64,000 nt of DNA from Verrucomicrobiota bacterium (GTDB lineage Bacteria > Chlamydiota > Chlamydiia > Chlamydiales > JAEYWL01): the NCBI GenBank assembly GCA_023428915.1, contig JAEYWL010000010.1:3357-67356 (forward strand), written 5' to 3'. The notes under the pieces are model-generated. The model worked only from the letters and a program-made list of their open reading frames with translations, was not told where the DNA came from and ran no database searches. Below, in pieces: positions 56,210-57,835 of this stretch (its first letter is position 1; the number at the start of each line of letters is the position of its first letter). The translations under genes and the position numbers were made by a program.

Positions 56210-56282
56210 GCTGACATAGCTCAATTGGTAGAGCACCCGACTTGTAATCGGGCGGTTGTGGGTTCAATTCCTACTGTCAGCA
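56210..56282 (+). tRNA. tRNA-Thr (anticodon UGU)
   Basis: Manual cloverleaf fold: acceptor GCTGACA/TGTCAGC, D arm GCTC/GAGC, anticodon stem CCCGA/TCGGG with loop CTTGTAA, and T arm GTGGG-TTCAATT-CCTAC. It is 73 nt with no encoded CCA. Confidence 0.9.
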
Positions 56283-57835
56283 ATCCCTTCTCTTTGGGGG
56301 TGTCGCATAGTGGCAATTGCAAGGGACTGTAAATCCCTCGACTTCGGTCTCCGTTGGTTCGAGTCCAACCGCCCCCATCTCCCTGGACTGTCCTGTACCT
56401 GTATGAATAGGTGAAATGGTTCACGTAGGGTTACAAGCAAGTTTTTACCGTCCAATTTTAAGTTCTGAAATACAAAATTCAAAAGTTGACGTTTTTCATC
56501 TACTTCAGAACTCTGAAAAATATCCCATGCACGCTTAGCTAATTGCATCACTTGATTAGCAGTTACGTGAAACTGTAAATCAACGGTTTCATGTCTAGCT
56601 ACCTGATCTCGAAGTTCGATTTGACGTCTCTTGTACTCTTCGGTCTTTTGACGAAAGAGAGGTTCATCTATGATCCCATCAAGCTTGTCATCATACATTT
56701 GGCTAATTCGCTTTTGAATACGATCCTGCTCTTGGCGGATAGACTTCAGTTGCTCTTTATGATAGATCTGCTGGGAATCGTGAATGGAGCGCAGATGGTT
56801 AGTAATTTCTTCAATTGCGCTATCAGGGAGTTGAATCCTGCCGAAGTGAGTCTGAATTGTCTTCAAGAGATCCTCTTCTCGAACATAGACTCGAGAGCAG
56901 TTATGCTTAGCGTTGGTGCAGCTATAGTAAATATATTGCCCCTTCTTTAATTCAGGAGAGGCTATACAGCCGCAATTGTTACAGGTAATCAGACCTTTCA
57001 ATATAAAGGCAGATGTTGCTGCTTTGAAGGGCTTCTTATTGAATCCAGCAAAAACATCTTGCACTCGACGAAAAAGTTCAGGAGAAACTAAAGGTTCATA
57101 GCGATGAAGGAAGTGACCACTTTTTGTGTTCATCACTCCGCTATAAAACGGATTTTTTAGCATGGCTTCTACCTGCGACTTAGCTATCTTGCGGCCACCT
57201 TTAGTCTTCATACCCATTTCGTGCATCTTTTCTGTTAGCATTAGTAGAGAGACATTCCCTGTGGCGTATTGTTCGAACATATGACCTATTAGATACTTCA
57301 AATTAGGGTCTGGAATGATCGTCTTATCGCCTTTTTCGTCTGTAGTATGGAGATAGCCAAAGGGGGCAAGCCCGATCCATAATCCCTTCTTTAATGCCTC
57401 TTCTTTGCTTCGTTTGATATTATCGCTCATTTGAAGGACGTAGCTTTTAGCGAACATTACCCCCATATCCCAACGCAGTATGTCTGAGCTATTGGATTTT
57501 TGGTTTAGAATAAGATTTTCGCGATAGAAGTGAATTTCAACCTTCCCATCTAAGCGAAGATCGTTGAGGGTAAGAGACTCCTTAAAGCTTCGCTGCACTC
57601 TATCTATGGTATCAGCAATAAGAGCATAGGGGTGACGCGATTTGCGTATTAGAGCAAGAATTTTTTCAAACTCTTTTCGAGTATCTCGAGTCGAAGATTC
57701 AGTGATTTGAAACACGTGTTCTACTTCAAAGCCTTTCTTTTGAGCATACTCAGTTAGTCGACGGATTTGAGCTGGTATCGATTGACCATCTTCTTGTTCT
57801 TTGCTAGAAACACGTGCAAGTAATAAGGCTTTCAT
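56264..57835 (-). CDS. Large serine recombinase (integrase); the ORF tail runs antisense through tRNA-Tyr into tRNA-Thr
   Basis: 523-aa ORF with the resolvase catalytic domain ALLLARVSSKEQ, a recombinase domain, the zinc ribbon CNNCGC...YYSCTN..HNC and a coiled coil. The last roughly 38 codons (WGRLDSNQRR...) are tRNA antisense. Confidence 0.88.
   Translation of the reverse strand: MKALLLARVSSKEQEDGQSIPAQIRRLTEYAQKKGFEVEHVFQITESSTRDTRKEFEKILALIRKSRHPYALIADTIDRVQRSFKESLTLNDLRLDGKVEIHFYRENLILNQKSNSSDILRWDMGVMFAKSYVLQMSDNIKRSKEEALKKGLWIGLAPFGYLHTTDEKGDKTIIPDPNLKYLIGHMFEQYATGNVSLLMLTEKMHEMGMKTKGGRKIAKSQVEAMLKNPFYSGVMNTKSGHFLHRYEPLVSPELFRRVQDVFAGFNKKPFKAATSAFILKGLITCNNCGCIASPELKKGQYIYYSCTNAKHNCSRVYVREEDLLKTIQTHFGRIQLPDSAIEEITNHLRSIHDSQQIYHKEQLKSIRQEQDRIQKRISQMYDDKLDGIIDEPLFRQKTEEYKRRQIELRDQVARHETVDLQFHVTANQVMQLAKRAWDIFQSSEVDEKRQLLNFVFQNLKLDGKNLLVTLREPFHLFIQVQDSPGRWGRLDSNQRRPKSRDLQSLAIATMRHPQREGIADSRN
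56296..56377 (+). tRNA. tRNA-Tyr (anticodon GUA), type II with long variable arm
   Basis: Acceptor GGGGGTG/CGCCCCC, anticodon stem AGGGA/TCCCT with loop CTGTAAA, variable arm GAC-TTCG-GTC, and T arm GTTGG-TTCGAGT-CCAAC. It is 82 nt. Confidence 0.9.

Follow-up and report, generated by a model that had tools for sequence, protein, structure and literature searches.

The DNA analysed here (referred to as the window) is a 64,000-nucleotide stretch of contig JAEYWL010000010.1 from a bacterium of the Chlamydiota (GenBank assembly GCA_023428915.1). Near its right end, an integrase gene (int) lacks a stop codon of its own and runs, in antisense, into two tRNA genes. The integrase open reading frame (ORF), at 56264-57835 on the minus strand, encodes 523 aa. 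It is an intact large serine recombinase (LSR), because the Pfam families Resolvase (PF00239, the catalytic domain, E=2e-14), Recombinase (PF07508) and Zn_ribbon_recom (PF13408, the zinc ribbon) all match it. Residues R8, V9 and S10, i.e., the catalytic R8 and S10 among other invariant residues, are at least 90% conserved in our alignment A2.

The tRNA-gene finder ARAGORN assigns tRNA-Thr(TGT) to 56209-56283 and tRNA-Tyr(GTA) to 56295-56379, both on the plus strand. Pairing in the acceptor stem (G56296..G56302 with C56370..C56376) gives 56296-56377 as the true span of tRNA-Tyr, which is intact; its discriminator is A56377, and CCA is not encoded. Translation of 56264-56440 on the minus strand yields LLVTLREPFHLFIQVQDSPGRWGRLDSNQRRPKSRDLQSLAIATMRHPQREGIADSRN followed by a stop, and the end of the integrase ORF reads ..REPFHLFIQVQDSPGR-W-GRLDSNQRRPKSRDLQSLAIATMRHPQREGIADSRN. 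The codon of this tryptophan, W487, occupies 56375-56377 and is the complement of the CCA formed by C71-C72-A73 at the 3' end of tRNA-Tyr. At W487 the integrase is fused to 36 codons read in antisense from tRNA-Tyr, the intervening spacer and a portion of tRNA-Thr. The frame ends at a TGA (56264-56266) inside tRNA-Thr, a gene that is involved only through this chance stop. Across the junction, the GC content falls from ~0.47 to 0.35-0.43. An initial annotation had described an integrase ORF that lacks a stop of its own, reads antisense through tRNA-Tyr into tRNA-Thr (stop at 56264) and has a W codon starting at the discriminator base; translation, ARAGORN and the acceptor pairing bear out this description exactly.

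The arrangement is found throughout a family of related enzymes. In a protein search, more than 100 close homologues (49-94% identity) were found, nearly all with C-termini that look as if antisense tRNA had been translated, of several distinct kinds. Scanning species-representative genomes with a profile gave at least 450 relatives, and 80 loci with 10-kb flanks were analysed (individual loci carry L numbers below), with tRNA and transfer-messenger RNA (tmRNA) genes, together called tDNA, identified by ARAGORN and tblastn. These 80 loci show 44-86% identity, and their hosts belong to the Chlamydiota, the Dependentiae/Babeliales, the Patescibacteria (Kazan, Saccharibacteria, Peribacteria and Paceibacteria) and the predatory Bdellovibrionales. 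A full tRNA or tmRNA gene abuts the int 3' end in antisense and at fixed spacing at 53 of the 80 loci. It is a tRNA gene at 40 loci (Tyr, Leu-CAA, Leu-TAG, Asn, Pro, Gln-TTG/CTG, His and Arg-TCT) and a tmRNA gene at 13, the “WRWRESNSRP” group; at most tRNA-fMet-type loci only a tRNA 3' fragment is found at int (Met is also among the targets). Between the conserved codons for EPF and the 3' boundary of the tDNA lie 41-45 nt, except in the Leu group, where the distance amounts to 53 nt.

The integrases of this clade essentially never have their own stop upstream of the tDNA; in 52 of the 53 loci with a full gene, the stop lies 10-249 nt inside or past the tDNA. How long the antisense tail becomes depends on where a stop codon happens to occur; it is, e.g., 36 aa in the window, 9 aa at a tmRNA and 2 aa at a tRNA-His. 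Because the tDNA abuts int at fixed spacing in 53 of 80 loci and the stop falls inside or past it in 52 of these 53, the read-through into the tRNA gene is a family trait that exceeds chance, not a coincidence of frame. The initial annotation had allowed for such a coincidence if homologous integrases ended at ..PFHLF.. with a stop of their own and no tRNA fragment lay at the other end of the element; none of the homologues compared stops there, and the distal ends of elements in relatives carry a tRNA-like fragment. These loci apparently represent a large and undescribed clade of tRNA/tmRNA-targeting serine integrases.

An alternative explanation is that the LSR is a passenger, e.g., a resolvase or an invertase, and that a tyrosine integrase or another enzyme performed the insertion. 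Targeting of tRNA genes is a hallmark of tyrosine integrases (PMC4383910), and in one element array (L004) a tyrosine integrase gene is found beside the LSR gene. Against this explanation, that tyrosine integrase occurs in only four loci (tblastn), none was found in the visible part of the window element, and in the complete elements L054 and L029, which were inspected in full, the LSR is the only recombinase. Furthermore, at nine or more different target genes, the LSR gene invariably occupies the element end and keeps a fixed spacing and phase relative to the tDNA. We therefore regard a passenger role as very improbable.

Far ends of the elements were sought using repeats of each locus's junction and then recurring sequence. 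A conserved motif, CATTCAGAACTTTTGATTGG, is found at about 30 sites, both at element far ends and at attP-type junctions (see below). All of these sites are co-oriented with int, nearly all are located upstream of it, mostly 5-11 kb away, and the motif is always preceded by a block of 13-15 nt that resembles the antisense 3' end of a tRNA or tmRNA gene (TGGGGGCGGTTGGAC for Tyr, TGGAGGTGGAGAGA for tmRNA). A metagenome scan using the motif gave at least 120 further contigs, a set retrieved by the motif itself and in which its conservation is therefore biased. In the IMG/VR viral collection, a single-protein scan gave only distant relatives, a profile scan nine loci and the motif scan none. The core of the motif, the octamer TTCAGAAC, is also found, inverted, within int of the window at 56504-56511 (plus strand; codons for ..FQSSEV..), ~127 nt from the crossover; in relatives it is kept as F-E/Q-S-S-E coding sequence, and it could be a coincidence or an accessory site.

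Three types of attachment-site (att) junction are recognized. In the attL type, the int C-terminus is followed by the full tDNA (the window, L008, L009, L014, L015, L017 and L029). In the attR type, at the distal end, other DNA is followed by the block and the motif (L014:834, L029:923, L028:2309 and L049:5981). In the attP type, the int C-terminus is followed directly by the block and the motif (L012/P0008, P0037, P0043, L011:3895, L033:1194 and L051:387; the metagenome contigs L147, L186 and L212; and, in distant relatives on viral contigs, L007, a 47.9-kb UViG (uncultivated virus genome), and L090/L092). In L014, L029, L028 and L054, an intact tRNA or tmRNA gene borders the element on one side and a repeat derived from tDNA on the opposite side; the window shows the tRNA end alone. 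Its junction is of the attL type with all hallmarks of the family, i.e., the EPF-to-W spacing, AGTCCA at -11..-6 from the T of TGG, and TGGGGGCGGTTGGAC running into TCGAACC of the real T loop.

From these data, 56264-56440 is probably the attL of a prophage inserted by the LSR at the extreme 3' end of tRNA-Tyr, in a clade whose int gene extends across attP. The P' arm of attP would be formed by the last ~8 conserved codons of int (..QVQDSPGR in the window, 56378-56402 on the minus strand, assigned by homology and dyad scan), and the centre of attP, with the site of crossover, by the W codon (TGG, the complement of CCA). On the excised circle, the int ORF would run on through the P arm, i.e., the block that resembles a tRNA acceptor and T stem and then CATTCAGAACTTTTGATTGG, which would encode a conserved C-terminal extension of ~25-30 aa. 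The attB site would consist of the tRNA T arm, the acceptor 3' strand and the downstream flank, so that tRNA-Tyr in the window would be the former B arm that now forms attL together with the int 3' end. Recombination of attB with attP would exchange strands within the last ~5-8 nt of the tRNA gene and leave the tRNA intact, with the body of int antisense against it and the native int 3' end at the far end (attR). The prophage form of int would read antisense tRNA to the first chance stop, here in tRNA-Thr, and excision would restore the full gene. The far junction of the window copy lies past the contig end, and for this reason the mechanism is transferred from the relatives, whose pattern the window element presumably follows; its excised circle would join int from 56378 upward to the motif through TGGGGGCG. 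The initial annotation had suggested that attP lies inside the int 3' end or that integration changes the integrase C-terminus; at the level of the family both are supported, with ~8 int codons as P' arm, the W codon as dyad centre, and ~30 native codons (..DAFRTFDW and a helix) that lie across attP and end at the far end.

To locate the crossover, 12 attP sequences, either real or reconstructed, were scanned for dyad symmetry. The symmetry is strongest about TG|G, within the W codon, where the complementary fraction is 0.417 compared to a background of 0.239 +/- 0.053. Around this centre, CGTCCA at -11..-6 mirrors TGGACG at +11..+16 and, farther out, TTCAAGAA mirrors TTCAGAAC. In the window, the best centre lies between 56375 and 56376, within the W codon, and AGTCCA of its P' arm is the mirror of TGGACG in the relatives' P arm. 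Sequence polymorphisms point to the same region. In the tRNA-fMet-type loci L184 and L018, a Tyr-like block is found at the far site and only ATGGGG is common with attL; the shared core is TTGGGT at tRNA-His (L074) and ATGGTAC at tRNA-Arg. The loci L162 (tRNA-Tyr followed by a flank) and L205 (motif, block and the same flank) are 93.5% identical in the flank and diverge only beyond CGCCCCCA. Because of the dyad symmetry and these polymorphisms, the crossover is placed in the last ~5-8 nt of the tRNA gene, with a common core of 5-15 nt; in the window the predicted core is CGCCCCCA at 56370-56377, i.e., the acceptor-stem 3' strand and the discriminator, within which the exact crossover dinucleotide is a deduction. 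As computed from the relatives, attP would be a short pseudo-palindrome with a short core shared with attB. Both the dyad scan and the polymorphisms speak against a crossover at the T loop via outer inverted repeats, which was also considered.

The position of the crossover is also relevant to an alternative in which the tRNA is reconstituted as in tyrosine-integrase islands, i.e., where the crossover is in the T loop (or the anticodon loop) and the element supplies a tRNA 3' segment of 13-15 nt (or ~56 nt). In favour of this alternative, a direct repeat of 13-15 nt of the tRNA 3' end is present at both element ends, and a second, weaker dyad centre is found at +13.5 (score 0.378). In L029 and L009, however, the T stem on the int side is host-specific and compensated on both strands (GGCGG/CCGCC and GTCAG/CTGAC, respectively), while the far-end block keeps a generic GTTGGAC or ACTGGAC that would not pair with the host 5' strand. 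The tRNA-fMet-type elements, which share no more than ATGGGG with the far site, also speak against it. Several int genes (L002-L005, L010, L011, L016 and the tRNA-fMet group) are adjoined by 45-56-nt tRNA 3' halves, which would also favour reconstitution, but in L011 and L016 these fragments sit between int and a full tRNA-Tyr gene located 3.8 kb and 5.9 kb farther on, respectively, which fits later islands, one of them with a tyrosine integrase (L004). Reconstitution is therefore considered improbable. The crossover in the last ~5-8 nt implies that the tRNA stays almost wholly host-derived; the part of attP that resembles a T stem mimics the B arm. The suggestion in the initial annotation that an element-borne tRNA 3' segment rebuilds the gene holds insofar as a tRNA-like fragment is found at the distal ends of relatives; this fragment comprises only 13-15 nt with a true core of ~5-8 nt, and almost no functional tRNA would come from the element. 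The 56-nt tRNA-Tyr fragments adjoining int in L002-L005 were rejected as attP, since full tRNA genes are found farther on in L011 and L016, past unrelated cargo, insertion sequence (IS) elements or a tyrosine integrase.

When read through the block and the motif, the int frame encodes W-G-R-L-D-A-F-R-T-F-D-W. After FRTFDW, a median of 18 codons follows before this frame is closed (interquartile range (IQR) 15-22; at least 10 codons in 92%; n=187), as compared to medians of 6 and 8 codons (at least 10 in 40-45%) in the other two frames. Relative to the final W, position +2 is mostly K or R, +3 is hydrophobic (L, I, F, M or V) in 95%, and +7 and +10 in 64%, a spacing that, as judged from the sequences, corresponds to an amphipathic helix and to which a wide variety of residues contributes. 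The consensus of the extension is ..D-A-F-R-T-F-D-W-x-[KR]-[LIFMV]-x3-L-x2-[LF].., over ~25-30 aa, and in distant members [FL]-R-T-[FIL]-D-W is retained while the codons differ synonymously, e.g., CTC AGA ACG TTC GAT TGG in L067. An AlphaFold2 model of the attP-form protein P0008 displays the canonical LSR architecture with long helices (338-442) between the zinc-ribbon elements; its tail is modelled as short helices with a terminal helix at 498-513, at a pLDDT (predicted local distance difference test) of ~64.

These observations must be weighed against the notion that both the read-through and the excised-form tail are meaningless, i.e., that Int ends at ~W487, attP only abuts the gene and the extension is a conserved DNA-binding site. 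With lengths between 0 and ~80 aa, the antisense-tRNA tails cannot represent conserved peptides, the FRTFDW codons of close relatives hardly vary even at synonymous sites, as a DNA arm bound by protein would, and the AlphaFold2 confidence is low in this part. Against this notion, the frame is selectively open beyond the arm of ~25 bp, with a narrow spread of lengths (the IQR given above) and a hydrophobic periodicity at 3, 7 and 10 with varied residues, and the distant members keep the peptide while changing the codons. A meaningless extension thus appears unlikely. We conclude, on these sequence patterns, that the frame past attP is selectively open, that the complete int ORF would be present only on the excised circle, and that integration would send the last ~25-30 int codons to the far element end and fuse the body of the gene to antisense tDNA.

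A more tentative possibility is that the integrase isoform depends on whether the element is excised or integrated, where the circle yields full-length Int with the FRTFDW-plus-helix extension (in some cases with an ssrA-like tag) and the prophage yields Int without it, the two differing in activity or stability. Tails ending in [AVLIF]A, i.e., ssrA-like, are found in 13 of 166 cases (7.8%) compared to 2 of 209 (1%) in control frames, which is suggestive only. Excised-form tails that end in LLAA, LLVA or MIAA, similar to ssrA tags, were noted in L090:1510-1630, L159, L012, L107 and L119. If the isoforms do differ, one could, for example, be integration-competent or short-lived and the other excision-competent or stable. 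Directionality control of serine integrases would then be built into attP itself, and the clade would supply serine integrases for which the universally conserved tRNA 3' end is a natural attB.

To the right of int, the gene content in the window indicates a prophage that extends past the window end. Directly upstream of int, a small HTH_17/MerR-like protein of 65 aa is encoded at 57839-58036 (minus strand; Pfam, PHROGs and gene call); it is a candidate recombination directionality factor (RDF) or excisionase. It is followed by a module at 58102-60454 (minus strand) encoding a 220-aa protein and a 579-aa Toprim/AAA_25 primase-helicase, which is also found in L009, L014, L021 and L054. Further prophage genes, identified using Pfam and PHROGs, are located on the plus strand at 60833-64000: a 440-aa conserved protein, encoded on the strand opposite to int, a 99-aa ORF, terS (62549-62980) and the start of terL (from 62964), which crosses the window end. 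Within the 64-kb window, neither a second tRNA-Tyr 3' end nor the conserved P-arm motif was found, which is expected because the element has terS and terL and exceeds the 6.2 kb that are visible. The far end is expected to read 5'-CCAATCAAAAGTTCTGAA..GTCCA..CGCCCCCA-3', i.e., block and motif in this orientation.

Several observations weigh against the proposal that a clade of LSRs integrates through an attP inside int, as outlined above. In addition to the weaker dyad centre, the low confidence of the modelled tail and the bias in the motif-retrieved metagenome set, the source contig stops ~415 nt past the window (at about coordinate 64415), before the far end of the prophage, the attP form of the window-type sequence has no match in the metagenome contigs, and in L008 and L002, the relatives nearest to the window, no far site was found within 10 kb. 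Tandem arrays are common among the loci, and for this reason some pairings of int with a far site may be wrong (e.g., in L067 and L084, with a different pseudo-acceptor). Finally, comparison of all tDNA flanks with far-site flanks recovered no clean unoccupied attB; the shared flank of the sole candidate pair, L162 and L205, looks like a decayed int 3' end.

The elements with defined boundaries are 7.8-10.6 kb long. Next to int they carry a module that encodes a small conserved protein, a primase-helicase, a SpoVG-like protein and a 418-475-aa protein, and their cargo is variable. Complete small elements are L054:528-8321, L029:923-11557, L014:834-11541 and L009:2168-11541, which have this module in common with the window prophage; their cargo includes an aldo-keto reductase, a YhcG nuclease and a terS-like gene. 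The 7.8-10.6-kb elements may be phage satellites of Chlamydiota. They would fit the description of satellites similar to phage-inducible chromosomal islands (PICI-like), with int, primase and terS in ~10 kb but lacking a complete set of virion genes; the window element has terL as well and leaves the window.

The genes for tRNA-Tyr and tRNA-fMet are hot spots for arrays (L011:11459-15394, L016:11465-17464, L004:2930-4453 and L035:2324-8450), in which the LSR gene is followed by a tRNA 3' half, unrelated cargo and then the full tRNA. The cargo comprises toxin-antitoxin pairs, IS elements, a group II intron reverse transcriptase, ankyrin proteins and, in L004, the tyrosine integrase. The tRNA halves are best explained by later insertion of islands at the anticodon loop, which displaced the original tRNA 3' half. 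A second int 3' end of the attP type is located ~7.5-10.5 kb upstream of the tDNA-abutting int in L067 (1039), L033 (1194) and L011 (3895); the upstream copy in L067 has a pseudo-acceptor block unlike the adjacent tRNA-Arg, i.e., these are tandem elements, possibly with different specificities.

Elsewhere in the window, a repeat of ~100 nt (77-88% identity), rich in GTCCAT (TAGTCCATTAAGTCCATAAGGTCCATGG..), is found at 6600-6693 and 51209-51304, each copy immediately beyond the stop codon of a gene on the minus strand (6697-7170 and 51301-52281, respectively). Direct repeats of 62 nt and 116 nt with the palindrome CATCGCTTCCGCGATG are found at 17098-18178, between the ORFs at 16140-17105 and 18238-18630. 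An ORF of 1743 aa at 45571-50802 has a low GC content (0.32-0.39 compared to ~0.44 around it) and short internal repeats (49149-49253), and has no Pfam match in the contig gene table.

The enzyme itself is a bona fide LSR, which, like phiC31, Bxb1 and A118/LI Int (Rutherford et al. 2013, PMC3783163), is composed of resolvase catalytic and recombinase domains and a zinc ribbon with a coiled-coil insert. Also as in phage LSRs, attP would be a pseudo-palindrome of ~48-50 bp with a short common core. The outer P-arm motif TTCAGAAC is located ~4-5 bp farther out than the similar TCGAAC of the T loop in the B arm, which may parallel LI Int, where the motif for the zinc-ribbon domain in attP is shifted 5 bp outward relative to attB (PMC3783163). 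Unlike phage LSRs, this clade targets the 3' ends of tRNA and tmRNA genes rather than protein-coding genes, its attP arm mimics a tRNA acceptor and T stem, attP lies inside its own ORF, and its hosts are Chlamydiota, Dependentiae and Patescibacteria. Similar to tyrosine-integrase islands in tDNA (Williams 2002; Islander, PMC4383910), int is located at the element end next to an intact tDNA, a tDNA-derived repeat is found distally, targets are switched among tRNA and tmRNA genes, and arrays form at the same tDNA. The differences are the unrelated enzyme family (an LSR here) and a core of 5-15 nt at the gene end, compared to 25-76 bp that rebuild the tRNA 3' half. Serine integrases were not known to target tDNA (PMC4383910), in agreement with the remark in the initial annotation that such targeting is unusual for them. 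In the literature, serine integrases are described as inserting into protein-coding genes, with short unrelated att sites; the serine-integrase prophages of M. abscessus all disrupt ORFs, with cores of 5-8 bp, and a 2026 provirus survey found that serine-integrase proviruses prefer coding sequences (PMC13626063). A minority of tycheposons carry LSRs, as do some marine satellites; the accounts consulted give no att details. A literature search found no description of serine integrases at tRNA genes or of a serine-integrase attP within its own coding sequence.

Three other systems provide partial parallels. The integrases of SSV1-type fuselloviruses have attP within the int ORF, and integration into a tRNA gene partitions int. 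The location of attP inside int is shared with the present clade; in SSV1, however, the enzyme is a tyrosine recombinase of an archaeal virus and a large part is split off, whereas here a bacterial LSR would exchange only its last ~30 aa and keep its catalytic and DNA-binding domains intact. The Ccr recombinases of SCCmec (staphylococcal cassette chromosome mec) are LSRs that insert at the 3' end of rlmH and preserve this gene, and expression of TnpX of Tn4451 depends on the circular form. Insertion of an LSR element at the 3' end of a conserved gene, with preservation of that gene, is common to these systems and the present one, but in the former the target is protein-coding and the state dependence originates from a promoter formed at the joint, not from an exchange of coding sequence. 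In the integration-dependent immunity of mycobacteriophages, attP is located inside the repressor gene, and both Rep and Int carry ssrA-like tags (PMC8092301). There too, integration changes the C-terminus of a phage protein, and a subset of the tails found here is LAA/LVA/IAA-like; in the mycobacteriophages, it is the repressor that is altered and integration relies on a tyrosine recombinase, and the degron evidence here is weak (7.8% vs 1%).

The clade described here extends tDNA targeting to a second integrase superfamily, and the modular construction of attP, with a conserved outer motif and a target-mimicking inner block, may explain the ease of switching among tRNA genes. Serine integrases are widely used as genome-engineering tools, and for the enzymes of this clade an attB is already present in many genomes. 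In host groups with few known mobile elements, the clade also serves as a marker of such elements, satellite-like ones of 8-11 kb among them. It would furthermore present a natural case in which integration rewrites the C-terminus of the integrase itself, such that state-dependent control of directionality is directly testable.

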